A stretch of 57,669 nt of DNA, filler included, from Porpidia crustulata (lineage: Eukaryota), in the NCBI GenBank assembly GCA_964255105.1. It is 5 parts of 5 records of this genome, joined end to end, with 100 filler letters (N's around TTAATTAATTAA, not from the genome) between each part and the next. Parts side by side here need not be neighbours in the genome. Positions count along the whole stretch, not along the records: positions 34,680 to 46,126 come from CAXUWE010000658.1; 4 more parts are not named here. One strand, 5' to 3'. The position numbers were made by a program, and so were the translations under genes. Below are positions 7,499-48,431 of this stretch, one piece after another; positions within the stretch are counted from its first letter, which is position 1; each line of letters opens with the position of its first letter. The notes under the pieces were generated by a model that saw only the letters and a program-made list of their open reading frames with translations, searched no databases and was not told the DNA's origin.

Positions 7499-8268
7499 TT
7501 ATGCCTCAGCATTGGATAAAGAGGATGCGAAATCGGGAATCTGCTTACTATCAGACATGACGGTAGCTGCAAATCCCGCGACTCGGGGTGCGGCTTGGGA
7601 AGTCCCTGACACAATGCTGGTGGCGCCGTTGGGTCCAATCCACACGGACCTAATGCCAGTTCTAGCGGTGGAGATAGTCACGCACTTGCCCCAATTGAAG
7701 TTTTGACTCTTGCTGTAGCTGACGTCGGTAGATGCGACTGTGATCACTTCCTTGTACTGAGTCGGCGCAACGTTACACGCGTTCTTATTGCTGTCATCAG
7801 CTGCGGCGACGATGGCAATTCCTCGTTTGTATATAGCTTGCAAGTCTTCATGAATAAAGATGCCTACCTGAACACTGGCGAGGCTCCTATATCTGCGTAA
7901 GACTGTAATCAACGTACTTCTCGTTAGCTGGCTTGAATCTTATGTCGTTGCGGTCGAAGCTATGTGGATCATCATTCTCTGCAGGCATAGCAATGAAGCC
8001 AAACATATCGGGCTCCACGTACATGACCCTGAGATTTCGCTGGATACGACCAATCAAATCCGTATAGAAGGTATCAGCATAGCCGTTGACGAAGTCGAAT
8101 CGTGACTCGATGCCAGGCTTGAGGTCCGCGCCGATACTGAGCGTATGGTCTATTAGCGTAGCATTATCATGAAGGAATGATCCAGCTATAGCCTGTTATT
8201 AGAGGTATTGGCGCTGCTAGCGCCGCAGTGACTGCATCCCACCAGGAGACGGAGATGGCACGTCGCAT
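7499..8268 (-). pseudogene. Proteinase-K/subtilisin (S8) remnant with an internal deletion
   Basis: I9 propeptide remnant (FDFVNGYA...LRVMYVEPD) lies only about 100 bp from the C-terminal part (VITVAST, NWGKCV, SGTSQAAPRVAG). The catalytic Asp (DTG) and His (HGTHVAG) segments are absent. Confidence 0.75.
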
Positions 8269-8627
8269 GATGGAGTCAACAGACTCATACTGGCCCAGAT
8301 TCGCCATCTATTTAGTATCAGGCCCCGTTCACGGAGGGTATGCTGCATGTTTAAGCGCATGTGTACCATGCGGTGGGGGATTCTAGTACGTCGGTACTAA
8401 CCTCCGAGCTGCCCTTTTTGACAACGCAAAGTGCGCGAGGATCAGTGGCATTGAGGCTCACGAACTTGGGGAGTGGCAGCTGACAGCAGGACTCCTTGCA
8501 TTTTCACCGCAGGAGTGATATTGTAAATTGGAACTCGAGTCCGGATGTACTAGGAAGAACCGAAACACATCTCTTCAGCTGGTCAAGTACCAACACCAAC
8601 CATCACTTTCCACAACAAAGACAGAAT

Positions 8628-10728
8628 CTAAGAGTTCGATCCGATATTGATCTTGACCCCGTTCGCGGCCAGGACTGAGAACATGCCTCCTAGGGTTGGT
8701 CTCGCATAGCCGACCGGCCCATACCATTCGCCCGCCTTGTCACCACTGATGATGAATCTATCTGGGAAAGGCAGATTGTTCTTTCCGTTTGTCAAGAACC
8801 TATACTCATCCGCAATTATCTCTTCCTGAATTGTGGCGCCGCATGTTGGAGCGACCCACATCGCCCAGACGCCATTGCTTTGAGGCCATGAGCCTGCATA
8901 AGGATAGCCTGTTGCCGTGGCATGCTGTTCGTACCATGCACATTGCATTTGACGAATGTCTGAGGAGAAGGTGTTGAGGTCGAGCAGCTGGTCGGAATAG
9001 AGATTGAAGATCGTACCCCAGGTGGAGTCATTGCCGTAATTATACGTAAAATGCGTCCTTTCTTTATTCAGTCCCAGACCATCGGTGACAAGTTTGTTCA
9101 CAAAGCTCTTGGCTGTGGTGCTGTAGCTCTGGTCGCCGGTTATGGCCGCGTAAGCGTTAAGGCCAATCGCAGAGACAAGGGCCAGATTGGTCTGGTTGGC
9201 GGAAGCGGGGATAGAGTCGACGGTGTCAAGCTGAGAAATGGGGTGCAAGCCGTTTTTCACCAGGTAGTCCGCGTATTGTCGCAGGATCTTGGCATGCGTC
9301 TGAGCAAAGCTTATATCGCTGGTGAGCTTTTGGTAGTCATAAAATAAGATCAAGAAGCCAGCATTGGCTTCCAGGATAATTTTTTCGGCATTTCCGGCAT
9401 TGTGTCCAGTGGCATTTGAGTAGGAAGCTCCGATATCATGAATTGCGTAAGGATGCGACCATTTGCCGGTGTCAAGGTATGCAGCGATAGGTGCGAGTAG
9501 CATTTTGATCCATGTTGGGCCAAGGACGTTCATGATAGGGAACATAGGGTAGATCACGTCAATAGTGTTGACGCTACCATCGCTAGAAATCTCCTTGAGA
9601 AATACATAGGGATTGCTTGTGTCTAGCGTATCCAGGGGAATGATGAGTTCAAGCGCTCCAAAACTAGAAGCAATGTCAGCTTGTCGACCTCACGAGCCGC
9701 AGATGCACCTACACTTGTCTGACAGTAGCGCTTGTAATAGCTGAATTATTTGCTAGAGACAGCACTTGACTGCTGAGCAATTTGTTGGTCAAAGGAATTT
9801 GACTCCTCGTTTGCGGCCTGAAAATCGCGGAAGAAAAAGTCCACAGCTTGTAGAGGAGTGGGATATTTGGATCGATAGTACGAAGTCTGCGCTTTGCCGA
9901 GATAATTAATAGCGTTATCTCAAAGATGGCCGACTGCAAAGGTAGCGGCCGCTTTGGATGAGACCTTTCCCAGGTCCTTTGCCACACCAGCGGTATCGCC
10001 CTTACCCTGTCCTCCAAGCTTGCCACTTTCAACGAATCCAGAGTAGACTGCTTGCCCGTCGCCACTTTGATGCGTAGCTACAGAACTGCTTGACTGCTCA
10101 ACCGCCAATGCGATGTGGCCATAAGTCGCCATATCGTGTCTCTCAGTGTAATGAATGAAATTGGGTATGCTCATATAGATCGCAGATACGGTTTGAGTAC
10201 TGTTGTAGGCGAAGTCTAGAAATTGGACCTGTTCGCCGGTCCAACGAGAGTTAATCCCACTCATGACTTGAACGTCGTGTGCCACGCCATCCTTGCTTGT
10301 AGCCGTGACTGTGAAATAGCTAAACGGTAGGGACTGACGGATATAATTTCCTGGCGACACCGGCGAGAAGAAGTCCAGAACAAAATTGACGGAGCCAGCC
10401 TCAAGATCGACGACTGTGTGTGTGTGCTTGTGTACTTGATGGAGCTTTGAGATGCTAGTGGGCAGTTGGGTATAACTTCTGGAACACCGAAAAGACTAAA
10501 AGTCTTGCTGTCCACCCTTGCCAGGATCGTCCAGTGCAATGGCTGACCCTGCCAGAACTGAGCCTTTGCGATGGGAAAGTTATTTGATTGATCGCCGGGT
10601 ACCCATGCCGACAGATATGGACTTCGTACTGCTAGAGGATATGACGGCAAGTTGGCGCTGACGAGGGTTAGCAGATATATGCTGAAGAGACTGACTCCGG
10701 CGAGCGCCCGCAAGCTAAATAGAACCAT
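8628..10728 (-). pseudogene. gtaA: Secreted glutaminase GtaA-family gene carrying three lesions
   Basis: PSYPLAVRSPYLSAW, RQSLPFSY, KEISSDGSVNTIDVIYP, HDIG, NQTNLA, ARPTLGG. Lesions: +2 frameshift in the (TG)6 tract at 10415-10426, in-frame TGA at 9920-9922, and +1 frameshift near 9746-9750. Confidence 0.85.
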
Positions 10729-11466: not shown

Positions 11467-11566
11467 NNNNNNNNNNNNNNNNNNNNNNNNNNNNNNNNNN
11501 NNNNNNNNNNTTAATTAATTAANNNNNNNNNNNNNNNNNNNNNNNNNNNNNNNNNNNNNNNNNNNN
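11467..11566. other. Artificial contig spacer N44-TTAATTAATTAA-N44
   Basis: Exactly 100 nt, six-frame stop core, identical at four positions. Confidence 0.98.
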
Positions 11567-23023: not shown

Positions 23024-23123
23024 NNNNNNNNNNNNNNNNNNNNNNNNNNNNNNNNNNNNNNNNNNNNTTAATTAATTAANNNNNNNNNNNNNNNNNNNNN
23101 NNNNNNNNNNNNNNNNNNNNNNN
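23024..23123. other. Artificial contig spacer
   Basis: N44-TTAATTAATTAA-N44. Confidence 0.98.
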
Positions 23124-30502: not shown

Positions 30503-33500
30503 ATGATGTTTACGTCCTTTACTGGCAGCGCTCGGCCCCGCCGACAAGTAAATCTCTCGGGGCGAAATACGAATCCCTTCGCTGCGATCTCTGGTTCTCG
30601 ACCACAGAATTCTCCCTCGAGCGTACAGAATACTCTGGCTCACGCTCAGCAAGAACGATTGGTCAGACACCTTGAAAGGGAACGACCCCGAGCAGCAACA
30701 ACAATCCAAAAAACTTGGAGGGGACACAGAGCTCGCGAGGAAGCTAAATGGCACTGGAGATGTGACTGGGACTACAACGAAGCACAAGATCGGAATTCTA
30801 GCCAAAATGAAACAAGTCCAAACCCACTTCCCAATCCATACCGAACGGAGGAAGAGTGCTTGGGCCAGCTACGACTACTCGTACAGTTCGCCTCTTCCAA
30901 GGACGATGGTGATATTGGAAGACTACACTTGTTCACCGTAAGATACCTTAGGTCATTACATGCCCTGCATTCGGCCTGTCCTATGGAAGTTTGGACGTAT
31001 CCACTCTTGCGCCTTGCTAAAATCGTCATTAATGTCTTGAACCGTAGCAAGACTTCTCAAGTGTCTACAAACATAGTCAACAATCTTCTCAAACTCTTGT
31101 CAGTTCTAGCGACTACGATACCCGAAAAGCTTGCTTCACACTCCGTTCTTTACTATCAAGCCTTGGGGACCCTACTCACCTCTCACAACCCGGCCTTAAA
31201 TCAAGGCCTCAATCGAGTATTACTAGGGTCAGCTATCATTAGCTTAATGCAACCTGTTACGTCGAGGACGAGTATCGTATACGAGGGTTTTGCCAGCGAA
31301 CTCCTGATTTTGCCTGACCTTTCCACTCTTCTCGGTGATCTGAAGATAGTGGAAGATGGTCTTGATTACGAGCTACTGGCTACCATGCTCAATAAGTTAC
31401 TCTATCCCGCGTCGGGGCGAAGCCTTGTGGAACTCAAAAGTCGGGAGCATCTACTTTGGCTCCTGGCATACTTTGTTTATTTCCGTCGGTCGGCTCATGG
31501 CTTTGAGGGTGCTTCGTCGGAGATACCAGATACGCTGTATATTAATGTAATATCAAAGCTTATTTCGCATTTGGCGGACGATATCGGATCGCGCGTTGTT
31601 CCATCTGAAGAATCCCCGATGGTGGAGAGCAATTCCCCTGCTTCGACTTACCGTGCCACCGAGCCTTTACCCAGTTTTGTGCGGAGTGAAATCCTGACTC
31701 TAGTAAACCAGAATAGCGTCAGCAGTCTTCTTGTGCACATGGAAATCGCTCCTGGGTCGATTGACAAAGTATCCGACGCTTCGACTCAGGCATCATCCCT
31801 CGCTAGTTATGCCTTGACACTGTTGAGGGTTTTCCGTGCTAGACGGGACGAGATATTCATGTGGCTATATCGAGGATCTACCTCCCGACAATCTGGGAAC
31901 AAGCTTCCGGCAATCAAGTATTTTTTCAAAGCTTCTAGTGCTACCACAATTTACGGCTTGATCAAGAGAGACCCTCGGGAAGCAATAGCCTTGTTGCGGC
32001 CGGATAATGCCCGGAAACTTTCTACTAGATCTGGACTGCAGCTGTCATCAGAACCTTTAACCATGGAGTCAAGAAACCAGCAATGGCATATCATCCTTCT
32101 CTTCTTGGAGCTTTATACCGTCATATTGAGGTCCATGGATGATGATGAATTTCTATCCGGTGATTCTCCCTCCAACAACGCGCAGTCGTGGACACGACAG
32201 AGTGCCTTGCCACTCAACCAAGTCAAAGATCTCAGTGTCTTTCTCAAGAATCTAGCGTTCACGATGTATTGGAACACCACAGAGATAGCCGGAATTGAGG
32301 AGCCCAACGTTACAAATAGCCTTGCGGATTACTTCAGCGGGAAAGTGGGGTCGCCATCTGATAACGGTCAAGATGATCTCTCGACCAAGCTCGAGGGTAC
32401 GGTAATAGGTGGCGTGACTGGCATGACATTGCCTTATACGAAGGGTTTAGTGACGGGTCTCTTACGCATGGTCTACGAACGAGAGTAAGGAAGGGCCTTT
32501 AGAACCGTTGAGTATCTGGCGCTGACCTATCTACAGTTCTCGGCGAAAGTTCCTTCCCAGCGATCATTGGCTCATGACGAAGTGGTTTGAAATGGACAGA
32601 TTTATTTCCGCCGTGGTGGCCGAAGAAGAACAGAAGCACAGAATAGAGGAGTCTTACGGCGAAGGCGCAGAAGAGAACCAAATCGATGAGAAAGATGAAG
32701 ATGAATCAGATGATGTCAACCTTATTGGCACGTCGCGGACACAACAGGTCAAGAATATCGAGCGTCTAAAGAGACAGCAGCAGAAGGCGTCAAGGCGGAA
32801 ATATCTTCAATCTGTCACGCCTCGACTCGAGATCCTGCAGAACATGCCCTTTTTCGTTCCATTTGCGACTCGTGTAGAAATATTCCGTGAATTCGTGTTG
32901 TTAGACCAAATCAGAAGGAGAGGTTCTGCTGACGCAGACGAATGGAGATTTCGGATGATGAATTCTGGACCTTCCGGCGGAGATATGAGCAGACATCGTG
33001 CCAAGGTCCGACGAGAGAATATTTTCGATGATGCCTATGAACAATTTTACCAGCTTGGGGAAGGACTCAAGGAACCCATTCAGATCAAGTTCGTTGACAA
33101 ATTTGACACTGTTGAGGAAGGTATAGATGGTGGTGGTGTCACCAAAGAATTTCTTACAAGCGTGACCAGCGAAGCGTTTAGCCCCAATAATGGTCTAAAC
33201 CTGTTTATCGAGAACGACCAACATCTACTCTATCCAAATCCATCAGCTGTAGAAGAGCGAGAAGATCTCCTTCAACAAGCAGACGTCAAAAGAGGCTCTG
33301 CGGAGTGGACTCAATCTATCAGAGATTTGCTGCAGAGATACGAATTCCTCGGTCGAATTGTTGGCAAGTGCTTATACGAAGGGATCTTGATTGACGTTCA
33401 TTTCGCCGGGTTCTTTCTTATCAAATGGGCTTTGACCGGAGGCACTGGCTCAGCGGCCAAGGAGTCAGGCTACCGTGCTAATATTAACGACATTCGTGAC

Positions 33501-34245
33501 CTTGACGAGAGCTTATTCCAAGGACTGGTACGTCGTCATTTGAGTGACCTGCAAGCATCTATTGACATTCTTATAGCTCCAACTCAAAAATTATCCCGGC
33601 AATGTCGAAGATTTCTCCCTCGATTTTACCGTCACCGATACTCTCTCATCTACTAATCCAAGTAAAACCATCACCCACGAGCTCCGACCCAACGGCGCCG
33701 AGATCTCCGTCACAAATGCAAATCGTCTCATCTACATCTCGTGCCTCGCCCGTCATCGCTTGCAGCTTCAACCGTGGAAGCAAACCCACGCTTTTCTCAA
33801 AGGCTTGGGCACCGTCATCTCCCCGTCCTGGCTCTCCATGTTTAACCAAAGCGAACTCCAAACCCTCGTCGGCGGCGACAGCTCCGAGATCGACCTTGCC
33901 GATCTGCGCAAAAACACCCAATACGGCGGCCTCTACACCATCGGCACCGACGGGCTCGAGCACCCCAGCGTGCGCTATTTCTGGCAGGCGATGCAGTCCT
34001 TTCCCGACGTCGACAAGCGGAAAGTGCTGAAGTTCGTGACATCGACGCCTCGCGCGCCGTTGTTGGGTTTTGACCAATTGAACCCGCGGTTCAGTATCCG
34101 AGACAGCGGACACGATCAGACACGGCTTCCCAGCACAAGTACCTGTGTGAATCTGCTGAAGCTGCCCATCTATACGGATGTGGAGACGTTGAAGAACAGG
34201 CTGTTGTATAGTATTAACGCCGGCGCCGGTTTCAATCTCAGCTAA
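30503..34245 (+). CDS. HUL5: IQ-HECT E3 ubiquitin ligase (Hul5/UBE3C-like), 3 exons
   Basis: N-terminal SFTGSARPRRQVNLSGR, IQ motif IQKTWRGHR, and HECT motifs EEGIDGGGVTKEFL and RLPSTSTCVNLLKLP. Confidence 0.9.
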
Positions 34246-34579: not shown

Positions 34580-34679
34580 NNNNNNNNNNNNNNNNNNNNN
34601 NNNNNNNNNNNNNNNNNNNNNNNTTAATTAATTAANNNNNNNNNNNNNNNNNNNNNNNNNNNNNNNNNNNNNNNNNNNN
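34580..34679. other. Artificial contig spacer
   Basis: N44-TTAATTAATTAA-N44. Confidence 0.98.
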
Positions 34680-35513
34680 GAGGAGGACAGGGACAAGCAC
34701 AGCGACAGTAGCCCCAACAACAATAGCAGCAGGCACGAGAGCCAGCGTGTTTCGTAACCAACCCTGGGATCTTCGTGTAGGATCTTACTTTGGGGGGGTG
34801 TAGAAAACGAGGTCGGTGGTGATTTGGTCTTTGAGGTTATTGAGGCCAAGATCCCGAGTGAACGCTCTTGGCAGAAAGCAGCAACTTAGAATATTTAGCA
34901 TGGGTGCACGATTGTGGTAATGATGCACTACTGAGAATCAGTAAGAACGCCGCTCAAAACGACGTCAAAGCCACATCACACCTGTACACAAAATTATCGT
35001 GTAGTCTGTGTGTAGTCGATACTGTGACGCGTTCCTTGACCGGCAGACCGGTTAGGCTGCCCCTCGCCGCCCTCCGCTTCCTGCTGCCCCCAGATCGACC
35101 GAGAACAGAACAGAACAAATATGAGACGGGTGGGAAGTTCTGGGTATCTAGTAGGAATTTGTTTATATATAAAGACCCCCCCTCATGACTTTGGAAGGAT
35201 CTAGGTGATTTAAACGCCTCCTAATGGTGAATTTGCCTAGCGACGGGTCTGGATCCTCACGATGACTTCCAGACATGGTAAGGGGATCCTTTACTTGAGT
35301 GGTGCTGTTACTCGGATTCACTCCGGTTTCTGCAGGATCACGTTTTGAAGATTGGATGGAATGATCCTGTGGGTTTCCGAATGACCCTATGCAAAGCCTC
35401 CTCGAGACGGGGTTTAAACCTCCGCAATGACCTTGCTCTATCCGTTCAGCAAGGCGATTTGACAGTAAGCAAAATGGTATCGCGTCAGCAAAAATGAAGA
35501 CGGTTCATCCCAT

Positions 35514-37580
35514 TTAATCATTGCCTCCACAACCATTGGTAAACCCTCCTCCTGCCGCCTGCACCACCTTGTTGTTCTTGAAACACCTCGCCCTGACCCA
35601 GATAGGCGTGTTGAAGGTAGCCACCCACTCATAGCCCTCGCTGCTAGGGGGCTTGAGATAATCGAAGGTCCACATCGTAACTCCAAGCCCCAAGCAGCCT
35701 TTGATAGACGGCAGGAGTGTTTTCTGGCCGTTGTCATAGTCACTGAAGCCTGAGCCGTAGATCTGGTAGCTGCTCCAAAAGCCATGATACCATCCTGTAC
35801 ACTTGCCGTCTGTCTTCTGAATGACCGGCCACGGGCGGTAGTCCGCGGCCGGCGTGACCTCGTACGTGTAACTGCCCCTTACCCAGTGGCCGCCAAACTT
35901 CCAGTTCATGGGATTTTTGTCATCGTTGCCATCACAACCGTTGATGAGGCGGTCAAAGGAATCGAGGCACTCTTGTTTGTTGAAATCCGCCACGTCATTA
36001 CCCAGCTGCAGCGTAAAGGTGTGCTCGTCAGGTGTGCCCTGGTGATAAGTGTTGGACGCTGTCCACCCGACCGTGTGCGAAGGCTGCTGTACATAGTTGT
36101 TGCAGAAGTCTTTGTAATTCTCATTCATGCGGTCTACCGCTGCGTACGCCTTGCGCCCGTCAGCCTGCCAGCAGCGGAAGTCGTCTTTCTTGACGCACGT
36201 CGGCGCTTTCACGCCCGCACTTCGGCGCGCAAGTCCATCAGCGTCTCTGTAGCAAAGGAGGCTATCGTGATATGGCCCAGCTCATTGGGGTGGAAGTTCT
36301 TCCCAAACGTATCCGGTAGTCCAAGACCCAGTGTTGCGTCGAAATTTCCGTCACCAGGGCAGCCGGGAGGGCTAGGCGCGCGGCGATCCAGCTTGTGCAA
36401 GTCGCGCGCAGCAGGATTCGCGGACTTCCACAGCAGGGTGTCATAAAGGTTTTCGTCGGCCACGCGCTTGGCTGTGGCCTCGAAACTGGCTCGCTCCGCC
36501 TCGTAGCGGACTGGGTCGCGGCGCTTGAGCTCGTCGTGGATGTATGGCTGGACATAAGAATTGGGCTTGAAGAACTGGAGGTCTGGCTGGGCGGGATCAG
36601 GATAATGACCGACAGAAGAAGGATCGCACATCTGGCCGGCCACTCCCGCATAAGGCCAAGGGTCCCAGTCAGAGAAACCGATCTTGTACTTGATGTTTGA
36701 GTCACCAGCAATGTCCGTGATGACCGACTGGGCGGCAGCGTTGATTCCCACGACTAATGCATTGAACTTGGCGCGGCGAGCTGCAGTCAGCGCCAGACCC
36801 GAGAATGAGAACCAACGTGGCATGGCCCAGTTTTGCTTGGTCGCACAGTCCTCATTGTCGGTGTTAAAGTACTGGGCATAGCCGTTGAACACAACGATGC
36901 TATCGGCGTTCATCTTGCTGTTGAGGGCCTGTAGGATCTGCTTGATGTTCGGCTTGAGGATCGTCTCGATGTTTTGCTGGGCTTTGTCGATGACGGCCTG
37001 GCAGGCGTCTTCGCCCTGGAAGGGCAGGAATATGCATTTCTTGATCATCGACGCCTGTCTCGTGCGTTAGTTCTCATTGCAGCACCCTCACGAGTTCACC
37101 CGCCGTCTCCGCACGCGAGGTTGGCCAACCGGGGGAAATTCCACCTACCAGACACAGGTCGTTGCCTCCGGCGGTCATCACGACCAGGTCCAGGTTTCCA
37201 TTCATGTCGTTTGCTTGCTTGTAGATGCCCTCTGAGCGGTCACCACTGCATGCGACGAACTGAAAGTCTTGCACAGCTGGGCCGAAAGCGCGATTGAGGA
37301 CCATCGGGTATGACCGGTCGTACCGCGAACAGAGCCAGTCATTTTGGTTGTGGAACACGCCACCCAGCTGAGTGCCCGATCCAATGCCGGCCGTGAAACT
37401 GTCACCAACCGCGGCCCACCGCTTGATCCAACCGAAGTCAGTCGGATCCGCCGCCCGCTTGATCAGGTTAGGGGAGGCGACAAGAGCGTTGGTTTCGTTG
37501 TCATGCGAAGTGAGTCTCATCACGTAGGCATCTGCCAGCCCCAGCAGTGCCAGCAACGAAATGGATAGGAACAGGACCAT
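35514..37580 (-). CDS. Secreted SGNH/GDSL hydrolase with a Cys-containing C-terminal extension, split by a 1-nt frameshift near 36216
   Basis: Signal peptide, GDSFTAGIG (block I Ser), ACSG, TAGGND (block III), KNFHPN (block V) and one intron (~37055-37148). GAA GTG C-G GGC GTG AAA needs one extra base to read EV(L)GVKAPTC into the 35514..36212 ORF. Confidence 0.75.
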
Positions 37581-38538
37581 TGCTGATTCTTAGAGTAGGA
37601 AGGGTGCGCAACGACGTTTCTGGATGTTCTGTCAGGGGTATGCTCAATACGTGAAGGACTGTGGATACTCGACTCACCAGTGTCCTCCTCCCTCAGAAAG
37701 GCACGTCGACGAGGAAATTGAAGTACTTCTGACTAGAAGACGAGGGCAGGGCACTACCACCTTGGGGCTGCAACGGCCGAGCTCCTTACGCCGACACCAC
37801 ACCACCCGTCTACAACCGGACGTCCCCCGCACATGCCGTCGAGGATGCGGTGAGATCACCTGCGTCGGCCATTTCGAGTAAGCTTCCATTCTCATTTCTT
37901 TTAATGTCAGCGCTGTGAACGGCCTGGCATCGACCAATAGTTTTCGATATTGCCTGTCCCCGCCCGGAATCCTACACGCTTGCAAGGCATCCAAACCAAG
38001 TCGTGCAGGTGACCGGAGAGCAAAGGGGCAGTGCAGCCCGCGATCCTATGTTGGGGCGGGGTGGGGCACAGCAGTGTAGAAGCCAATTGGTAGCGATCTC
38101 TGGTGTTGCAAGTGTGGGTAGGAAGTCAGACAGCATTCTACGACCGACGAGTACGTAAATTCGAAACGAAGCAGATGACTACTCCAGGCTGACTCAGCCA
38201 ACTAAGCCCTATTAAGCAATAGCATCTTTCAGTTATAACGTTGATGTTCAATCTCCACCGGCAGCACCAGAACAGAAGCTGACATGAGAATAGTCACAAC
38301 AGCCGGGCTGACACTCCCCTAGTGCTGTGACCCAACAGTGAGGGCAGCAGGGTCAGGGGCGTGTTGTCATGGGACTGCTGCCGCACTGTGCCAAATCGTA
38401 TCGAACGAACATCACAGCCAGCAAGAATGAGAGTGATAATGAGCAGCAACCACAGCTTGCCATGTCGACTCGCTCTTCCTCTGGCTGTCACCATCGGCAT
38501 CAGTTGAGCATCAAGTCGCCCGTTGACCATCAAACAAC

Positions 38539-39690
38539 ATGGCTCGTAACGCGTTAGTCCTTCTCGTGACTGCCTTCGCCGCGCACGGCGTGCTGGCCGG
38601 TCATGCCGACTGGGAGCCTCGACTCTATGGCCGCACCTCACTTGTCATTTCAGACGTCCCCGTCGTCGCTTTCGAGAATGCAACAGCCTACACGCTCGAG
38701 AAGCGCTGGGTTGGCGTCCACTCCGGCAGCGGCGATGCGGACACCCGGCTGTGGCCTGGAAAGACGATCAAGTACTGCTTCGACAACGACGACGCCAAGT
38801 CGAGACTGTTTGAGGACCTCAAGGACGGTGTCGAGCGGTGGTACGCCTCGGGGCTGCCCGAGGACTTCAAATTCGTCGAGGTCGGCGCCACGGCGTGCAC
38901 AAGCGACCGGAACAACGTGCTACTCATCAAGTACAGCGCGCCGGGGACGGGCCCTGGTCAGTCGGTGATGGCCACCTCGCCTGCGTTGCCGCCACTTTCC
39001 GGTATAGGACAGGGTCCGACCATGACGTTGACCGACGATGAGACGATGGGCATGCTCGACAAGGTTGCCAACTACGCGCACGAGCTGGGCCACGCCTGGG
39101 GCCTCCATCACGAGCACCAGAACCCGTTCTACTGGGAGCAAGCCTACGGGCATCAGAACGGCCACCTTTTTGGCGCCAACAACTTCAACTGCGCGAACCT
39201 CAAGGACTACGCCACCGCGCAGCAGAAGATCACGGATCGAATCAACAACTATCCCGGCGGCCTGGGCGGCGTTCTCTTTGAGAGGCACTACCAAGAAGTG
39301 TGTCAGGTGCGAGCGGTCGCAAGGCAATACCAGTTCAGCGCCACGGACTACCTGCCCTTTCCCCTGGCCGACCTCAATCTGGGGGACACGACGGGCAACG
39401 ACATCGATTAGGATAGCATCATGATCTATCCGAGCGGGGCCGGCAGCGTGGGCACCGCATCGCCCGGCGGGCCCGACAACCGGTTGAATATCCTGACTAA
39501 GCCAGACGGCAGCAGGATCGCGAGGAACCTGAACCCTAGCCCGCGAGATGTTGCCGGCTTGATCGCTCTGTACGGGGAGGTGAGGGTCGATGATGAGCCC
39601 CTGATGTCCGGGAAGAAGAGCAGCAGGTTTAACAAGTTCAAGGATGTGTTCAAGAAGAGCAAGAGTACGGGTGCCTCTGGCATATGCTGA
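38539..39690 (+). CDS. Secreted metzincin (astacin/M12A-like) zinc metalloprotease with one in-frame TAG at 39409-39411
   Basis: Signal peptide, LEKR maturation site and zinc motif HELGHAWGLHHEHQ. The same frame continues past the TAG into DSIMIYPS (Met-turn) and PSPRDVAGLIALY. Confidence 0.8.
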
Positions 39691-39987
39691 TTGTTCTGTT
39701 CGAGTTGGTGGGATGGAGAGATATGTCAGAGAAACTCTTCCAGCTACTCGGATCCGTTTTGGCTAGTTGATTAGATCATCTTTCGCCGTTGTTACTACTA
39801 CTCATGCTTCCTCTTGAATGCGTTCACTATCCGATAAATATACATGCAACTGCTTCACTGATTATTGGGTAATGACATATATTTGTCAACCCGGCTAGCA
39901 AACGGTTTTTCATGTAACATCAAGTGCTTGGTACAATAGTCGGATTATCCTTTTAGTTGTGGTCAAGTAAATATTCTCAATCTATTC

Positions 39988-41991
39988 CTAAGTGGTAGTT
40001 GAATTCGGAACAGCCGGCCATCCTTGAGCCCCAAAACACGGAATGTACGGTGGTTCTGGCGCAAGATCTGGAATCTTCGGTCGTCCTAAACCTTTACCCA
40101 GTGCATCAATCAATGTGCCGTCATCAAGATCGATGGCCCATATCATGGTCCTACAGTCGTTAGTTCTCCTTCGCAACTTGGGGGTAGGATGGGACTAGAG
40201 TGCTTACCCGCCTAAACACCGCTGATTGGCATAATCGACTTTCATCTTCAGTGTCTGGGCATCGTCCCAGCTGACCCACTGATTCGAGTTCCAGGTGACT
40301 ATCTTGACAGCCGCAACAGGGTCGAAGGTAACTAGGGCTCCGCCCGCGATAATTTTGACAATCTCGGCTGCCGAGAGTACGCCTGGGGTTCCCGTGCACG
40401 CACCACCATCAGCACCGGAAGAGAACGGACATCCCGCCGACATGCAGGAAGGGTTGGACATGGTGAAACCTTGAAAGAGAGAGAAAATCTGTCAGCGCTG
40501 ACTACGTGCTGAGGGAAGACCATAAAGACGGGAACTCGGTGGGGTGAAACAATGAATCAGCCTACTTCGTCCATAGAATCCAAGCCCTAGATTGATGCGG
40601 CCAGGGTTGATGTTATTGCGCCATAGCAGCTCCATGCCTTGATTAATCTCTGTTAGATTGGTGTGCGCGTAGGCAAAGGAGCCAATGGACTTGACAGTGC
40701 TGTCCCACACGCCGTCTGTAAAGCTTGGATCAGTAAAATCTTGAAGATCTAGAATGCCAAGAGAAGCTCACGAATATCGTAGGTCATGATATTGAACCAG
40801 TCAACGTGCTGTTCCAGATCAACAATGTTGAACCCTCTGAGATACCAGTAGGACGCCGGCTGTCGATTTTGTGTTAGAGTGTGTAACCAAGACTAAGATA
40901 TTGCTCGGAGCTCACCAGTGTAATAGACAGTCCAATTGGCGTTCCCAACGAGTTAAGTCGGCTCCTCAGCCGCTTCAGGAATGTGACATAGTTGTCGAAG
41001 TCCGCCTGAATGCCACCGCGATCATCCGCAACAGGGTACTCCCAATCAATGTCGATGCCGTCGAACCCATTCGAGGTGATAAACGATGTTACGGACTCAA
41101 AAAAGGCGTCTTGCGCTGATTGTGACCCTGCCAAATTGGAGAAGACAGTGCGTGTTGGGCCGGGGTCGTTCATGGCCCAGCCGCCTACCGCGATCCAGAC
41201 CTTCAGGTTTGGATCCCGATCTTTGAGCCGAGAGACGCGCCTGTACAAGGTCCCGGTGGTAGAGTCCATGGGCGCCAAGCGGAAGGTGGCAGGGTCAATG
41301 ATGGCAAAGGCAAAGTTAATGTGCGTGTAGAAACCCAATGGGATATCCTCGGGCTGCATATCTACGAGTATGAGTTGCTAGAGTCAGCTTCGTTCTCTTA
41401 AAGAGCTGTGTGCTCATAGATCATGCGCAACGTACTCCCACAGGGCCTTTGCCAATTCCATCCCTCATAGTACCCAATGGTGCGTTTGTTTGAGCTCCCC
41501 GCACCGACATCGCAGCTCGGCGATGTTACTGTCTTGGACCCGCAGAAGTCAGAGGTTGTGCCGCAGAAGCCAAACTTACTGCAGCACACGTTGAGTGGAC
41601 AAGTCGAAGCATTCGACCATTGCGCGCCCCAGCCTGGATCACATTCGCTCTTGTAGCCACAAGTCGAAGTACACTTGGGCCCGCAATAGTCAGGACCTAG
41701 TCCGCATACGCCAGCGCCCGAGGAGTCTCTTGAAAACGGCCACGTTATTGAGGGTTTGGGACGAATCGATTTGACGGGAGGGACTCACAATGGACCACAA
41801 CAACCGATCGAGCACGGCTTTGTCTTACTACAAACATAGCTATCACTACTAGAGGCAGCGGTTTGGGGATCGCTTTGCTGAGCATTGGACGCGAAGGAGG
41901 CGGCAGCAAAGACTGTGGTCAGATTGAAAGAGGAGCAGACGGGTAGCAGAAAGAGCCACAGCCGGCGGCCAAAGGAGAAACGTGAAGCCAT
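39988..41991 (-). CDS. GH18 subgroup-C (killer-toxin alpha-like) chitinase with N-terminal hevein/CBM18 modules, 7 exons, intact
   Basis: Signal peptide, CPLNVCCSKFGFCGTTSDFCG, RTIGYYEGW, YTHINFAFA, AVGGW, catalytic FDGIDIDWEYP, MTYDIHG, LGFYGRS and WAIDLDD. All six introns are GT-AG and keep the frame. Confidence 0.92.
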
Positions 41992-42535
41992 CGCGACAAT
42001 TCCTGAAGCACTGCTTGCTCGACGGGGAGAATATGAGGGGGGCGAGATGGGTCGAAGAGGGTAGTAGCAGATTAGCAAGGCCCATACAACGTGCTATCTG
42101 CTACGACTAAGTAGAGCTCCTGCTTTCTTCCTTCAATAACTTTAAGCCTTCTAGAGGTCAGCGTAGCCGGCGACTAGGGACCCATGCACCGCAGGGACAT
42201 CCCCGTGATCCATAGCGGTCAGCCCTCGGCCGTGCCACCCACTTCAGCCGGCTGACGGTCAGCTTCTCCTTTTGTTAGATGAATGTCACAAGACCAGCAT
42301 CTCTCACCGGTTTGACAGCGTATTCGACAGGATTTCGGCCTAATATCATTTGATAGGGCCGTGCGCTGACGTGACTTCTGGCGTGCAACTGCAGAGGCTT
42401 TCGGGTCCCGCGGACTTCTCTCTTTAGGAGCTTCTTTGCTCTCGAGGCACAGTCCCTTGATTAACGACGGTGTGCGCACCTCCGACCACCACTTTCACCA
42501 GAGGTTCGAACGGGGAGCCTCATCGATTAAGAACA

Positions 42536-44249
42536 ATGGCCTTCACCACTAGAGCCAGAGCAGCCCTGTTACTCGCCGTGTCGTCCCTCTTGCTGAGCGT
42601 GTATGCGCAAGACGTGTGCCCTCAAGCCCCGACTCTCTCCGGCACGCCATCCGAATGTAATATCTGGCATACGGTTGTCAGTGGTGTGGACACCTGTGCC
42701 ACCGTAGAGACGCAGTTTGGCATCACGTCCTCTCAATTCCTTGGGTGGAACCCCGCAGTCTCTTCCGACTGTCTGTCCAATTTCTGGGCGGGATATGCGT
42801 ACTGCGTGGGCATTGGCACTATCTCCAAACCTTGTTCCTCCTCCGTGAAAATTACCTCGACAACGTCTCAAAGCAGCAGCAGTACCAGCTCCATCACCAG
42901 CTCAACCATGAGCTCAATTGCTAGCTCCAACACAAGCTCGGGCAATGCAACCTACTCCACTCGCTGGCCGATCATTAGCTACAACCTGACGACAAGTAGT
43001 GTGAATACGGCGTGGCCACCGTCGCGCACGCAAGCAGGCCAGCCGAGCTACTGTATCTCCTGGCATTTAGTGAATAGCGGCGACACTTGCCAGACCATCG
43101 TAAACAGATATGGCGCAAGCCTTTCGATGGATAAGTTGTGAGTCCTGCTACTCATTTCCCTCGATCAAAACGGATGTAGTTAACTCAACCACCTCATAGC
43201 CTAACATGGAACCCCACACTTGGGACCGACTGCTCGGGTCTTTTCGTGGGTTGGTGGGTATGTACATCGATTCAGTCGCAGACCTCCGCAACGCTGGACT
43301 GGTTAGGAGCTGGTGCAACCAACGCGACGGTACCTCCGTCCACCGCCTGGACCCCGACCGCGTATCCAACCATCAACTCTAGTTTTGTCGCTTCACCTGT
43401 CCGGACTGGTATACCTAGTGATTGTCGGTCGTACTATCTAGCCCAGTCTGTAAGTACACATACCATTATCTATCAGATCTGCTAATGAGACTGTTACTTA
43501 CTCATGCGGGTTTGACCAGGGTGACACATGCCGCCAAATCCTAGCTCAGATCAGTTACATTACCCAAGACCAATTCATGGCCTGGAATCCTGCTCTCAGC
43601 GGCAACTGTGACGGTCTCTGGGCTGGTTACTACTACTGCGTGGCTGACTTCCCCTCATCCTCCTTGCCCATGCCACCAACGGTGACTACCAAACCATCGC
43701 CGACGGGAACAGGCAGTCCCAGCAATTGTGCAGCGTGGTATCTGACCACGTTCAACGAAGATTGTGACGCCCTCATCATGGAGTTTGGGACCTTCTCGAA
43801 GAATGATTTTATCTTGTGGAATCCGAGCGTTTGGTCGGATTGCTCGAACTTTCAGGTCAGTTGATGTTCACGAAAATCGCGCGACTTGCTTGAGTCCTGC
43901 TGACAAAATCTTCTCTGCATAGCAAAACATATATTACTGCGTGGCGGTCCCTGGCACACCCACTACCCGTACCGCATCAATCTCCACCACGGCTGCGCCG
44001 AGCTCAATTCCAACGCAAAGCGGCATGGCTTCCAACTGCACCGACGAGTGGCTCGTGGGTACCACTGACACTTGTGGCTCGATCGTCAAATCCAATGGCA
44101 TCTCTCTGGCCAGCTTTGAGGCCTGGAATCCCTCAGTTGGAAGCAACTCAACCGGCTGCACAGTGGCTCCAAACTATTATGTCTGTGTTGGCGTGAACAG
44201 GGCCATCACTATAAATAACCCTGTTGGTCCGACGATGGCACCGGGATAG
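42536..44249 (+). CDS. Secreted fungal-type LysM effector with five LysM domains, 4 exons
   Basis: Signal peptide and five C..(W/Y)..V..GDTC...WNP...C......Y.CV-type units separated by Ser/Thr/Pro linkers. Three GT-AG introns keep the frame. Confidence 0.92.
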
Positions 44250-44363
44250 CAAGAAGCTTTAGGCTAAACTCTGCGCGCTCAGCACGTTCTATTCGCGGAA
44301 TCGCAGTGCGAACAGTGACTGCTCGGGCCTGTGGTTGGACTCTTACTGCTGTATCGGTATCTC
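44250..44363 (+). pseudogene. Decayed sixth LysM domain 3' of the stop codon
   Basis: From 44281, in another frame: STFYSRNRSANSDCSGLWLDSYCCIGIS, matching the second half of the upstream LysM repeats. Confidence 0.7.
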
Positions 44364-44528
44364 AAGACGAGACGCAACAATCACCAGCGGTACACCTGTG
44401 CCTGCGTCAATATCATGAAGGCTACTAGGTCGTGGTCTGTCTGAGGTTAATACGTATATGTAGATAACGAACAAGAAGTGGTCTTTGCGCCGGAAGGTAA
44501 TTTGTTTCCGTTCATGTGGTCCTGTGAC

Positions 44529-45871
44529 TCAAAAGAGAATTGGAACATAGTATGTGTCGTCCTTGCCTTGCCTGAGCCAGTACCCTCGCTCACCTCCACC
44601 CGCGCCCTCATCTTCTTCAGTAGGTGTTAGAGAGCGCCAAACCCGGTTGGACATCCAGCCACTGGGGCCTACCTCGAACCGGTAGCCTTTCCCGATGCCT
44701 TCATGGAAGAGCGGCTCGAATATGGTAACAGGCAACGCCAGGTCGAACTGCTGCAACTGCGGCCCCAAGGCATGAGCCAAGCGATCCATAGGCATCAGAA
44801 TGTCGGCCTCGGGTCGGCTTCCGAGGTTATTAGTTGGTAGATAGATTGGGCCAACGAGGCAAATGTAAAGCTTGCGAAGATTCGGCAACGCCATTGGTAC
44901 TGCTTGGAGCAGAGCCTCAAAAGCCTCTTTGCCAGAGTTGGGGGGGTCTTGGGCCTGGGCTGGTCGGGATATCTCATTGAGTCGCCATACCATCTCGACT
45001 GAGGTGATGCTGGCCAGACGCTGCTGTGATAAGAGATGTGGAAGGTGGCAAATCATGACGCTGCTAGACATGTGAATAGTATTCGTAGCGTAGAGTATGT
45101 CAATGCCATCTATGTAGCTGCGAGTAGATATTAGCCAAGTCGTTTGGTTTGAGAGTGAGAGAGGCATTTCTGTAGAAGTCCCGCTGTGAAAATTGGGATC
45201 TTCCCTCCAGATGGCTCTTTAGTAACAACAAGATGGACTTTCTGACTCGGTACACCCAAATTGTATTATACGAGACCCACTTACGCCTGTCTACAGGCCA
45301 GGAGCCAGCCCATAATTCCCAAGAAGCACTTTTCGGGCGCCTTGCCTGGCCAGCCTTGACACCAGCCCGCCACGCCAGCCAGGCATTCGTCCTCCCACGG
45401 CTCCAAAACATGGCCATTCCCGCGAACAATATTCTCAGGATCACGGTGGCAAACGCAGCTAAACCATTGCCAGGCCTTGGACTTACTGACATCAAGCTTC
45501 AGCGGCGACTTGAGAAGCTTATGGCTTTCACAATTGAGGCCGCAGTGCCGGATCTTCTCGCCCAACATGCGCTTGTCCTGCTCGGTCATAGAAATCATCG
45601 GATGGTCAAAGGAGAGATCAATGTGTATGATGCGGTCGCCAAAAGCCTCAATGAGGATATCCCGGCGCAGTTCTGCTGGGAGGCGCAGGAAGAAAGGGCT
45701 GCTTGCGGTGGCTGCGGCCGTGGATACAATTATGGACTCGCGAGAAGGCGACGGTGTGAGGACACGCATTCGCTGCGGGGGTAGGAATGGCATTTCGCTT
45801 TCCGAAGATGTTTCTTTATGCTTACTAGAGTGTAGCCTTTTGCGGAGCCAATCGCTCAGTACGTTGGGCAT
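44529..45871 (-). CDS. DUF7730-like uncharacterised fungal protein, 2 exons
   Basis: SPFFLRLPAELRRDILIEAFGDRIIHIDL, then IMGWLLACRQA/YIDGIDILYATNTIH, a pattern typical of this family. One intron. Confidence 0.7.
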
Positions 45872-45959
45872 CGTGGCATCTTGACTTTCAGTGATGTTGA
45901 TTGACGAAGTTTGATTTGTAGACTTAGATGAACGACGGATGTCAGCAGAAAGCAACTGA

Positions 45960-46126
45960 ACATAAATCGTTGCCTCAGTTCTCAGAGTGTCGAATTCGAC
46001 TAAGTTTCTTCGAATTAATCGATTTATTAAATCTCTTCGAATTAACGTTTTATTTTAAATCGTTTTAAATTAATATGTTACGGCCATACCCACCATATCT
46101 AGTAGTATTGGACCAAGTCTTCCAAC
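45960..46126. repeat. Strongly AT-rich RIP-like relic followed by a possible LTR 5' end (TGTTACG at 46076)
   Basis: ttcgaattaatcgatttattaaatctcttcgaattaacgttttattttaaatcgttttaaattaata, then an abrupt switch to TGTTACGGCC at the contig end. Confidence 0.45.
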
Positions 46127-46226
46127 NNNNNNNNNNNNNNNNNNNNNNNNNNNNNNNNNNNNNNNNNNNNTTAATTAATTAANNNNNNNNNNNNNNNNNN
46201 NNNNNNNNNNNNNNNNNNNNNNNNNN
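46127..46226. other. Artificial contig spacer
   Basis: N44-TTAATTAATTAA-N44. Confidence 0.98.
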
Positions 46227-48431
46227 GAAATGGGGCTTACGATCGGATGAGATCTTCGGACTGACGACCCAGAGGGACGTCTTCGGGGAAGTAGAGGGTG
46301 TTGGGCCAGTCGACAATCTTGCGGTACGTATCGTGAGGTTCTTGGGCGCAGAAAGGGGGCCAGCCGACGAGACACTCGAACATGATAGCGCCGGCGGACC
46401 ACCAGTCGCATGTAAAGGTGTAGCCTTGGCCGGTGAAGATTTCGGGGGCGATGTAGTCTGGGGTTCCGACGGTGGAGTAGGCCATGACACGGCGGGACTT
46501 GCGCCAGGTGTTGATCTGAGACCGGTTGCTGACGGTGAGGTTGATTTGGTCGAGGGAGACGGAGTTGCGATCGCGAGGGCGGTTGGAGGAGCCTTTGAGG
46601 AGTTGTTGATAGTAAGAATTCTCGTGCTGAGCATGGAAGCCAGTGGATAGGCCAAAGTCGGTGAGCTTGATATGGCCGCCGCGGTCGAGCAGGATGTTGT
46701 CAGGCTTGATATCTCTATACAGAATCTTATTAACCATACCGCCACTAAGGTAGCCACAAGTTCTCGCCGGGTGGAGGGATGCATCACTAAGAGACGCAGG
46801 GTATGTAGTACAGAAGTAGGAAATGCAGTCAATTTAAGTAGAGAAACAGGTCTGGTCAAAAGCTGTATTGTTTGACGGCAAGGAAATAGAATGCTTGGAG
46901 GAAAAACTATTTCCGTCTATACAGTAAATAAGGAAAGCCTTGGACCTCACTCCGCGGACTAGCAGCGTATGCTTTCGGTCCTAACCTAGTCATCAAGAAT
47001 CATCGCGGAAATCTGTTGACAGCCTATTTTTGCCGCTGCATCCTCGCTTTCCACTCCGCTTCTAGAAATAACTTACCGTCGACGGACCAACAAAAGGATG
47101 ACCTAGCAGTACTCCAAATTCGGGATTTCAATGGAGTGCATACTAGAAATTGCAAAAGCACAGAACTCGACAGGACTGAAAAGGCAGAGCAGTATCTAGT
47201 GCAGATGCCTACACAAAGAAACGAGAAAGCGCTCTAAACTTACCGGTGAACATAACCAAGCTTATGCACAGCTTCGATAGCCAAGACAATTTCAGCCATG
47301 TAGAACCTCGTAATGTCTTCCGAAAAGATCTCATACTTGATCAACATAGTCATTAGATCTCCTCCGGGTAAAAATTCCATTAACATATACAGGTAAGTCG
47401 GGTCCTGAAATGTGGTATGCAGCTTCACGACCCAAGGGCTGTCTGATTCAGCTAAGATGTCGCGTTCCGCCCGCACGTGTGCCAACTGGTCTTTTTTGAA
47501 CATCTCCGTCTTTACGAGCGACTTTAGGGCATATATCTTTCCATCAGTCTTCCGTTGGACTAGTTTTACCTCCCCAAAGGCTCCCTTCCCAATTACCTTC
47601 ATCGTTGCGAAGTTGGTAGGTGATTCTTTCGTCCGTAAGAACCGAAGATACTGAGCCTCTGCCTTTAGCATTTGGTCTTTTCTCGATTTTTTCAGATAGT
47701 CCGATTTGGTTGGATCTCTCGTCAGATCTTCTAATTCTCGAGCACTGTCACAACAATCAGTTTAGTCTATGTAGTTCGGATCAACTGGACGCCTACCGGA
47801 CGTTCCGATCGCGAGCACGAGTAATATTCTCCTTGAAAAATGCCTCCACGAGCGCATGAAGTCCCTGACCACGCTTGGCCACGTTTGACGAAAATCTCTC
47901 GGGACTCTTCTCAGGCGGATCATCAAAATGGGAATGTGAGCTTGATCCAGGTAGCGGCGGGCTCAAAAGACTTCCATAATTCTGTTGAGGTGCAGCACCA
48001 CCAGTCCGGGGTCTCTGGTTTGGTGAGGGCTGACGACCGAAAGGGCTTCCTTGGCGTTGCGTACTTCCTAAGTTCTGGTTTGAGAACTGGTGGGCAAGAC
48101 CTGAAGTAGGGTCGTTGGCGGTGTAACCTCCTTGGCGTTGCTGGTAAGAGGCTTGCGGAGACTGAAGGCTCTGCTGCTGGTATTGTTGATACTGAGCCTG
48201 CTGGTATGGGGTATTTCCAAAATAATTCCCTGCTGAACCATAAGCACCAGGGCTCTGGATCTGGGCTGCAGCATAACTGGGTGGAACCTGGCCGCCTTGG
48301 TTTGAGAAGACAGGCTGAGGGAATGTTGATGGAGTTGTAGGGAAGACACGCTCGTTCGTGGCAGGATAATTGCGATCGTTGTTGTATCCTCCGCCTCCGA
48401 AGTCCAAATGTAAACGATTATTGGGTTCCAT
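46227..48431 (-). CDS. cot-1: NDR-family Ser/Thr kinase COT1/Cbk1, 3'-truncated by the contig end
   Basis: Gln-rich N-terminus, [25 protein letters not shown], spliced [17 protein letters not shown] and [14 protein letters not shown]. Confidence 0.93.

Follow-up and report, generated by a model that had tools for sequence, protein, structure and literature searches.

The stretch of DNA analyzed here (the window) comprises 57,669 bases of the Porpidia crustulata assembly GCA_964255105.1. It consists of five pieces of approximately 11.45 kb joined by four identical N44-TTAATTAATTAA-N44 spacers, so that features cannot be read across the joints. The fourth piece (CAXUWE010000658.1) is one entire fungal contig of 11,447 bp, exactly the length recorded for the contig of P0001, a fragment of the window protease; its G+C content is 53.6 %, as against 47.8-49.9 % in the other four pieces. 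It carries four consecutive genes in two divergent pairs: an SGNH esterase gene (minus strand) and an astacin-like protease gene (plus strand), followed by a gene for a CBM18-GH18 chitinase (minus) and one for a LysM-only protein (plus; Table 1). Gene models were scripted from open frames and GT..AG sites, and domains were assigned using Pfam. The intergenic gaps, counted from the SGNH gene rightwards to a DUF7730 gene, are 958, 297, 544, and 279 bp. Each of the four cluster proteins has a hydrophobic signal-like N-terminus, with a maximum 10-residue Kyte-Doolittle score of 2.1-2.7. The preliminary description of this locus, which listed four consecutive signal-type genes in two head-to-head pairs with start codons at 37580, 38539, 41991, and 42536, is borne out in its layout by the gene models and these N-termini. 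It had placed the end of the cassette at 44363, past the actual stop of the LysM gene at 44249, and it had missed a premature stop codon in the protease gene, a 1-nt deletion in the esterase gene, and the Fungal_lectin_2 domain of the esterase. The locus is probably (at roughly 0.6) a copy of a gene cluster found across the Pezizomycotina, the four members of which have been conserved and inherited together and specify secreted proteins that would act jointly outside the cell.

Table 1 Features of the four-gene contig and of the window (window positions)
Feature	Position	Strand	Remarks
Joining spacers	11467-11566, 23024-23123, 34580-34679, 46127-46226		
Piece four, entire contig	34680-46126		
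SGNH esterase gene	35514..37580	minus	exon 1 37580-37149, 94-nt intron 37148-37055, exon 2 from 37054
SGNH block I, GDSFTAG with catalytic Ser	37386..37406	minus	motif search
SGNH block III, GGND (TAGGND)	within 37152-37175	minus	motif search
SGNH block V His (FHPNELGH)	36272-36295	minus	motif search
Esterase frameshift and stop	36209..36217	minus	1 nt missing between 36217 and 36216; TGA 36211-36209
SGNH-protease divergent intergenic region	37581..38538		958 bp; from gene models
Astacin-like (M12A-type metzincin) protease gene	38539..39690	plus	intronless, 383 codons, interrupted by in-frame TAG
Zinc motif HELGHAWGLHHEH (HExxHxxGxxHE)	39079..39117	plus	motif search
Premature TAG, protease codon 291	39409..39411	plus	two codons before Met-turn SIMIY
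Met-turn SIMIY	39415-39429		
Chitinase gene, 534 amino acids	39988..41991	minus	exons 41991-41789, 41728-41436, 41361-40916, 40859-40772, 40715-40566, 40469-40208, 40150-39988
GH18 active-site motif DGIDIDWEYP	41062-41033	minus	DGIDIDWE 41062-41039
Chitinase-LysM divergent intergenic region	41992..42535		544 bp; from gene models
LysM-only gene, 504 amino acids	42536..44249	plus	exons 42536-43137, 43200-43449, 43520-43855, 43923-44249
DUF7730 gene, two open reading frame pieces	44529-46054	minus	Pfam DUF7730 on both; fills contig right end

Linkage of these genes elsewhere was seen in metagenome contigs, which were scanned with an alignment of the protease and yielded 12 loci that were then compared with the four window proteins by tblastn. 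One of these (L012) is a match to an 18-residue motif only and was left out, leaving 11 loci with a real protease homologue. In all 11, as far as the contigs extend, other genes of the set accompany the protease gene. The chitinase gene lies convergently downstream of the protease gene in nine of the nine loci with more than 700 bp of downstream sequence (the contigs of L005 and L010 stop 523 and 690 bp beyond the protease gene). Divergently upstream of the protease gene, a LysM gene is present in five loci (L001, L002, L003, L005, and L010) and an SGNH-lectin gene in three (L008, L009, and L011), the other three (L004, L006, and L007) starting inside the protease gene. In L011 all four genes occur in exactly the order and orientation of the window, with 30-50 % identity for the protease, the esterase, and the LysM protein; L002 also has all four, with the places of the SGNH and LysM genes exchanged. 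The invariant core in the metagenome loci is formed by the protease and the chitinase rather than by the chitinase and the LysM protein, and the recurrence of the layout in other genomes is far more than would be expected by chance.

In named genomes, linkage was read from consecutive locus tags or accessions and from contigs in three protein searches. Three consecutive genes are present in Pestalotiopsis (KJ359_012062/063/064; SGNH, chitinase, protease) and in A. sclerotiicarbonarius (PYI10812/813/814). Adjacent SGNH and chitinase genes were found in A. niger, where An15g00840 and An15g00850 (CAK42254/55) specify a CBM18-GH18 chitinase and a 638-residue SGNH-lectin protein, as well as in A. 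mulundensis, A. hancockii, A. ibericus, A. carbonarius, A. sclerotioniger, A. brasiliensis, F. solani, V. albo-atrum, Cosmosporella, and Chaetomium olivicolor. Further adjacent pairs are those of Thyridium curvatum (E0L32_009229/230), Pseudogymnoascus (V495_01789/790), Pyrenodesmia sp. 2 (Q9184_002558/559), C. nupharicola (COL922a_003304/305), Microsporum ferrugineum (000812/813), and M. audouinii (005360/361). The genes are two or three tags apart in Parahypoxylon, Pyrenodesmia sp. 3, Helicocarpus, and Arachnomyces, and all three enzyme genes lie on contigs of one size in Hypoxylon sp. CI-4A (201,292), Penicilliopsis zonata (280,608), and A. lucknowensis (153,034). Two copies of the cluster, on different contigs, are present in A. 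lucknowensis (P0200/P0257 and P0202/P0246) as well as in Rhypophila decipiens (P0148/P0280 and P0205/P0304). The SGNH, chitinase, and protease genes are adjacent in Eurotiomycetes, Sordariomycetes, Leotiomycetes, and Lecanoromycetes; in a Dothideomycete they share a contig and lie near one another. In A. niger, the gene preceding the pair, An15g00830, is listed as an M12A 'flavastacin' in one study (PMC7804941) and is, on its position and family name, a candidate for the counterpart of the window protease, giving the same three gene types on consecutive loci (An15g00830/840/850).

The histories of the genes were compared using FastTree trees with local support values, built on matched pairs from the same cluster and not reconciled with a species tree. 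For 29 pairs of SGNH and chitinase sequences, 16 of 26 splits are common to the two trees, where 2000 permutations of the labels gave a maximum of 3. The protease and chitinase trees (12 pairs) have 4 of 9 splits in common, a value reached by 0.05 % of the permutations. As genes that merely track the species tree would also agree, the telling point is agreement where the trees depart from taxonomy. Both clusters of A. lucknowensis and that of P. zonata fall in one clade with Pestalotiopsis, Chaetomium, and Thermothielavioides, separate from the remaining Aspergilli (support 99/86 in the SGNH and chitinase pair of trees); in the protease set, A. lucknowensis, P. zonata, Pestalotiopsis, and Pseudogymnoascus come together (support 96/97). 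Arachnomyces and Helicocarpus, both Eurotiomycetes, group with the Dothideomycete Bipolaris (support 100/94), and the two clusters of R. decipiens fall in two different clades, which are the same in both gene trees. Shared clades that mix classes imply that the genes were duplicated, lost, or transferred together. The preliminary description had taken the four genes for a unit and had called for a comparison of gene trees; with clades that cut across taxonomy common to the trees, with other members of the set next to the protease homologue in 11 of the 11 loci (two of them with all four genes), and with SGNH, chitinase, and protease genes on neighboring locus tags in many named genomes, that view stands.

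The esterase gene specifies an SGNH domain followed by a lectin domain. Pfam reports Lipase_GDSL_2 on exon 1 and Fungal_lectin_2 (PF18647) with an E-value of 6.3e-45 on the frame 35514-36281, the latter match spanning positions 2-102 of the 102 in the profile. Residues D58, S59, G137, N138, D139, and H397 (numbering of the orthologue P0097, the first sequence of alignment A2) are invariant in 34 SGNH homologues; the Asp of block V expected at position -3 from the His was not identified in the esterase. Relatives of 600-710 amino acids (aa) combine PF13472, PF28342, and PF18647, and PF18647 is present in all 113 relatives listed, according to precomputed Pfam columns, and also in metagenome locus L011. 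A model of P0097 with a mean predicted local distance difference test score (pLDDT) of 80.2 has an SGNH fold, the core of which covers approximately residues 50-414 including a long insert that corresponds to PF28342 in relatives. Searching the PDB using phmmer gave phospholipase A1 of S. albidoflavus (4HYQ, E 1.4e-14) and the lipase of S. rimosus (5MAL, E 3.8e-14) as the closest solved relatives, and Foldseek target template modeling (TM) scores for these two Streptomyces lipid esterases were 0.78 and 0.76. In the VIA fold search the same model aligned with 5mal over 232 of 234 residues (Z 27.7, root-mean-square deviation 1.9) and with 1esc at a Z of 23.5. Carbohydrate esterases scored far below the Streptomyces lipid esterases. 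Both fold searches are dominated by the SGNH domain, the lectin and terminal parts being barely covered. On sequence and model, the esterase thus resembles an SGNH enzyme nearest to Streptomyces lipase/phospholipase A1, fused to a lectin domain of the Lyophyllum decastes lectin (LDL) type; it differs from the Streptomyces enzymes in its size of approximately 640 aa, the long SGNH insert, the C-terminal LDL-type lectin, and an extra β-rich part. The Fungal_lectin_2 family takes its name from LDL. The Pfam LDL model matches the esterase lectin weakly, with an E-value of 0.0019 that is below the cut-off, and sugar specificity, including α-galactosyl binding, cannot be transferred from one to the other. 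In L011, the SGNH-lectin gene (6733-8925, minus) is a single frame of 730 codons from stop to stop and has no intron, unlike its window counterpart with one or more. Next to it in that locus lies a gene for a Zn2Cys6 transcription factor (4078-6318, minus); there is none on the window contig.

The protease is predicted to be of the astacin type by its zinc motif, by the Tyr of its Met-turn, and by the fold of its catalytic domain. Residues H181, E182, H185, G188, H191, and E192 are invariant in 37 protease sequences, and S293, M295, and Y297 of the Met-turn do not vary among 15 sequences and are conserved to at least 90 % in the 37. The protein search gave 96 homologues, mostly of approximately 300-420 aa. 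Pfam Astacin (PF01400) matches 10 of 15 members of the alignment, with a best E-value of 2.7e-7, and gives no match with the window protein at E≤0.01; a sequence search of the PDB with the protease profile produced matches at the zinc motif only (E approximately 0.09). An AlphaFold2 model was made of P0373, an intact allele of the window protease (pLDDT 83.9, predicted TM score 0.77). The top Foldseek matches of this model are all astacins, namely myroilysin, BMP1, astacin, LAST-MAM, and meprin, with E-values of 3e-7 to 1e-5 and target TM scores of 0.56-0.69. The likeness to the known members of MEROPS M12A (astacin, BMP1/tolloid, the meprins, and myroilysin) lies in the HExxHxxGxxHE motif, the Met-turn with its Tyr, and the catalytic-domain fold. 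Outside the zinc motif similarity to these is very low, and the fungal family has an N-terminal segment ending in KR and a C-terminal Cys tail of its own. In alignment A3 of the fungal astacin-like family, the KR site follows an N-terminal segment that is disordered or modeled with low confidence (window 38695-38709), and R56 is at least 90 % conserved. The KR pair and the segment preceding it suggest a Kex2-type propeptide, and the protease is probably made as a zymogen. The C-terminal tail (window 39670-39687) ends in a nearly invariant Cys, which brings the conserved Cys residues to an odd total of five; this terminal residue could be a latency or tethering Cys.

The chitinase has a signal-like N-terminus, two CBM18 modules (Pfam Chitin_bind_1 in two stretches, E 2.2e-15), and a GH18 domain (Glyco_hydro_18), in that order. 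The model aligns to residues 1-531 of a 534-residue Hypoxylon protein (P0212) with 70 % identity, so it is complete and of a short type. Its nearest long relatives (P0320 and P0322-P0326) are classical large chitinases of 966-1240 aa that are 55-61 % identical over exon 3. No Pfam LysM match was obtained on any exon of the chitinase gene, and PF01476 is present in none of the 120 chitinase relatives listed (precomputed Pfam columns). Subgroup C chitinases were originally described as large enzymes of 140-170 kDa with multiple chitin-binding modules (PMC8042737). Of those older traits, CBM18 modules N-terminal to a GH18 domain with the active-type DxxDxDxE motif are present and the large size and C-terminal extension are absent. 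Judged by its domains, this short, CBM18-only protein does not have the C-II (zymocin-type) architecture. An equation of the chitinase with CfcI of A. niger was considered and rejected, the A. niger member being An15g00840 and not An02g13580. In all four sequencing runs compared with the window, the GH18 stretch at 41033-41070 draws short pieces of many unrelated contigs, which explain a bump in depth and the loose ends observed there. The LysM protein is predicted to be a secreted chitin binder of the LysM effector type. Pfam LysM matches exon 1 with an E-value of 4.9e-6, and no other domain was found; five Cys-framed LysM repeats can be recognized, four by the pattern C..WNP..YxC and the fifth by eye.

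Two of the four genes are damaged in the window strain. In 13 of 14 homologues of the protease the column of the premature TAG holds a W, the other having a Y, and P0373 (383 aa, from a 12,824-bp Logan contig), which is identical to the window protease in 379 of 383 residues, has W at position 291. As the stop codon precedes the Met-turn by two codons, the truncated product would lack the Met-turn and its Tyr. In the esterase gene the minus strand at 36220-36209 reads gtg c-g ggc gtg, a Leu codon short of one base, after which RA and a stop follow. The consensus of 34 SGNH homologues at this site is DLRAxVLGVxxPxCxxxDEFxCWQ, and the window changes frame just after the last catalytic block; the two frames align end to end with P0097, to residues 1-421 and 417-654, so the deletion puts the C-terminal lectin part out of frame. 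Run X1 has 99 % of the sampled words. It probably represents the source sample, and its contigs reproduce both lesions without any difference; the lesions are thus not an artefact of one assembler. Run X2, from another study, has one contig of 12,824 bp that is approximately 98 % identical over 35400-44400, and run X4 is approximately 92 % identical. Gene content and gene order are unchanged in X2 and X4, each of which carries one extra base behind 36216. With the intact state thus established through the protein P0373 at the TAG and through runs X2 and X4 at the deletion, both lesions are specific to the window strain, in which the cluster is decaying through a nonsense codon in the protease gene and loss of the esterase lectin part by frameshift. 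Of 38 indel rows, 12 were listed: 10 are intronic or intergenic, one is an in-frame deletion of 9 nt in the LysM gene, and one lies at the frameshift site. Their placement, mostly in introns and intergenic DNA, fits the gene models. A 56-nt 'intron' at 36220-36165 had been considered in place of the frameshift and was rejected, as it would delete the conserved LGVxxPxCxxxDEFxCWQ and the close strains simply have one more base; the rejected model served as a query in the metagenome tblastn and in the SGNH tree, where the 19 residues missing from it have a small effect.

In Trichoderma, subgroup C chitinases have LysM neighbors (TAL6). That LysM-only genes cluster with chitinases, as the preliminary description had stated, is established: in C. 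rosea, lysm2 adjoins chiC1, and both are induced on chitin (PMC7176902). Expression of chiC1 increases 50-fold against F. graminearum (PMC5999205), and the supplements of that study name just BN869_T00006499, an MFS (major facilitator superfamily) transporter, among the identifiers of the chiC1/lysm2 neighbors; searching full texts for these identifiers added nothing. The C. rosea and Trichoderma pairs can be likened to the window pair by gene type rather than by orthology, since in each a secreted GH18 chitinase with CBM18 is divergent to a secreted multi-LysM protein; in the window, unlike there, the pair belongs to a conserved set that also has an astacin-type protease and an SGNH-lectin esterase. 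For the A. niger locus no description as a unit was found, a full-text search for the locus names giving only PMC7804941, which names An15g00830. The data searched from a mixed-culture study of A. niger (PMC5476202), where genes carry identifiers of another kind, gave no match. A literature search for the four-gene combination, from which subscription journals were largely absent, likewise found no description of the unit. The chitinase/LysM pairs and the zymocin-like clusters are already known; the four-gene unit is apparently undescribed.

How the four proteins might work together can be outlined as follows. After joint release they would work extracellularly on a single composite of chitin, protein, and lipid, which may be another fungus, with its wall and the membrane beneath, or else chitinous remains. 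Cleavage of the chitin would fall to the chitinase, and the removal or processing of wall proteins to the protease; the esterase, guided by its lectin, would attack components of ester or lipid type, while the LysM protein may coat the chitin of the producer itself or mop up chitin fragments. The pay-off would be either antagonism or feeding on chitinous remains. Several observations weigh against such joint action of a co-inherited set. The copy in the window, with two of its four genes broken, cannot act as a full set. LysM homologues are present in 6 of the 11 protease loci, and linkage of the LysM gene is known from the metagenome loci only. In V. albo-atrum the protease homologue listed is on a contig of 596,696 and the SGNH and chitinase genes are on one of 286,431, and in Penicillium sp. 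DV-2018c and C. incanum the protease homologue listed also sits on another contig than the SGNH gene. No promoter word occurs above shuffled controls, the best 7-mer (CACAGTG) being found in 9 of 12 intergenic regions, a number that shuffled sequences attain as well. An15g00830 and An15g00840 of A. niger show background levels during submerged growth and under carbon starvation (log2 of approximately 3 by robust multi-array average, RMA, in exponential and starved cultures; supplement data). Finally, trees that are not reconciled do not separate paralogy from horizontal transfer.

The preliminary description had suggested that the locus may be part of a zymocin-like toxin system, in which the chitinase would be the docking or entry subunit, the esterase and/or the protease the payload or processing partners, and the LysM protein an immunity factor or shield. 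Some chitinase relatives have indeed been automatically named 'killer toxin subunits alpha/beta' (P0226, P0291, P0301, P0382, P0385, and P0387), and the α/β-sandwich fold reported for LDL itself, of the KP4 type, is common to the killer toxins KP4, SMKT, and Klus (PMC12637454, PMC13324453). The zymocin-like clusters of the Pezizomycotina described in 2024 resemble the window set in being small nuclear clusters around a secreted GH18 chitinase, sometimes with a LysM-only gene, and in their patchy distribution and changing genomic place; in that work, however, their chitinases are of the C-II type throughout, with LysM domains in every case but three, and lie next to a gene for a γ-toxin RNase (anticodon nuclease) and sometimes an immunity gene, and no such cluster was found in Leotiomycetes or Dothideomycetes (10.1101/2024.10.25.620242). 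The window set has a short chitinase of 534 aa with CBM18 only, which lacks the long clade C C-terminal extension and, like its 120 relatives listed, any LysM domain; an esterase and a protease take the place of the γ-toxin and immunity genes, and clusters of its type do occur in Leotiomycetes and Dothideomycetes. No γ-toxin-sized gene was found on the contig as judged by the gaps and Pfam, although no γ-toxin query was used and a very divergent small gene is still possible. The contig has no unassigned gene-sized interval, its four gaps leaving no room for such a gene and its left 834 bp (34680-35513) containing just two open reading frames, which have neither a start-plus-signal pattern nor a Pfam match. 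The proteins carry separate signal-like N-termini, and there is no sign of a complex between them. A zymocin-like system is therefore highly improbable, and of the earlier interpretation the unit is supported, by synteny and gene trees, and the zymocin analogy is not. A related and tentative idea, on balance unlikely, keeps the notion of killing and drops the nuclease: a self-contained, protein-only cassette that moves between lineages as a unit, in which a lectin-guided lipase or phospholipase is lethal on the membrane, the chitinase opens the wall, the astacin activates or assists, and the LysM protein gives the producer immunity. If this were true, the cassette would be a functional parallel to zymocin with a membrane-lytic payload instead of a tRNA nuclease, and the class-mixing clades in all three enzyme trees would be traces of its horizontal transfer as a whole.

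Two further readings dispense with an outside target or with joint action. The proteins could serve to remodel the wall of the producer, in autolysis, sporulation, or hyphal development, as do CfcI/CtcB or ChiB of A. niger. The CBM18-GH18 class includes CfcI (An02g13580), which is conidiation-specific and BrlA-dependent (PMC4309609), and LysM proteins influence development in C. rosea (PMC7176902). The A. niger member of the cluster is another gene, though, and it stays flat at background (0.21-0.28, normalized) through six days of starvation and sporulation in the wild type and in ΔflbA and ΔbrlA strains; such signals, together with the RMA values given above, argue against a role in starvation, autolysis, or conidiation and fit a conditionally silent locus. 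Two genes that are lost in the window strain and intact in a strain approximately 98 % identical to it suggest, moreover, a dispensable accessory function. Self-directed remodeling is thus improbable. Microsynteny is otherwise largely lost across the classes of the Pezizomycotina. It is against this background that one has to judge whether the genes are merely neighbors, kept adjacent by descent or by a shared chromatin domain and functionally independent, as the lack of a shared promoter motif, the variable gene order in which SGNH and LysM genes swap sides, and the location of the protease gene elsewhere in some genomes might indicate. Adjacency or near-adjacency has been kept over five classes, rearranged orders retain all members, whole clusters have been duplicated in A. 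lucknowensis and R. decipiens, and the gene trees have class-mixing clades in common. As, in addition, all four products are predicted to be secreted and at least two of them to bind or cut chitin, a neighborhood of independent genes is rather unlikely.

A conserved cluster that is co-inherited and works outside the cell would be of interest in several respects. Four genes of the secreted-enzyme type that are kept together, duplicated, and possibly transferred as a unit over five classes would be unlike the known chitinase/LysM pairs and zymocin-like clusters. Conserved fungal clusters that serve neither secondary metabolism nor nutrient assimilation are rare, and the four-gene cluster would be one of them. 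Dermatophytes, plant pathogens, lichen fungi, and industrial Aspergilli are among its carriers. The cluster offers a handle on the old question of the role of 'killer-toxin-like' chitinases and their LysM neighbors, and a working context for two large uncharacterized fungal families, the SGNH-PF28342-LDL esterases and the fungal astacin-like proteases. In A. niger, An15g00830-850 forms a defined three-gene locus that is amenable to deletion, induction, and assay.

The surroundings of the four genes can be described briefly. The DUF7730 gene gave no tblastn match in any of the 12 related metagenome loci and is therefore a neighbor outside the conserved unit. Repeat-like DNA had been noted earlier at the right end of the contig; Tandem Repeats Finder (TRF) and a repeat finder detected no tandem or long dispersed repeats across the whole contig, that end included, the only repeat-like matches being of 20-29 nt and at chance level. 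The earlier remark that the contig carries no housekeeping gene is correct, the DUF7730 gene being the sole extra gene on it. The pieces adjoining it in the window are other contigs, and it is to these that a HECT ubiquitin ligase C-terminal domain (32526-34245, plus) and a protein kinase fragment (46237-46833, minus) belong.

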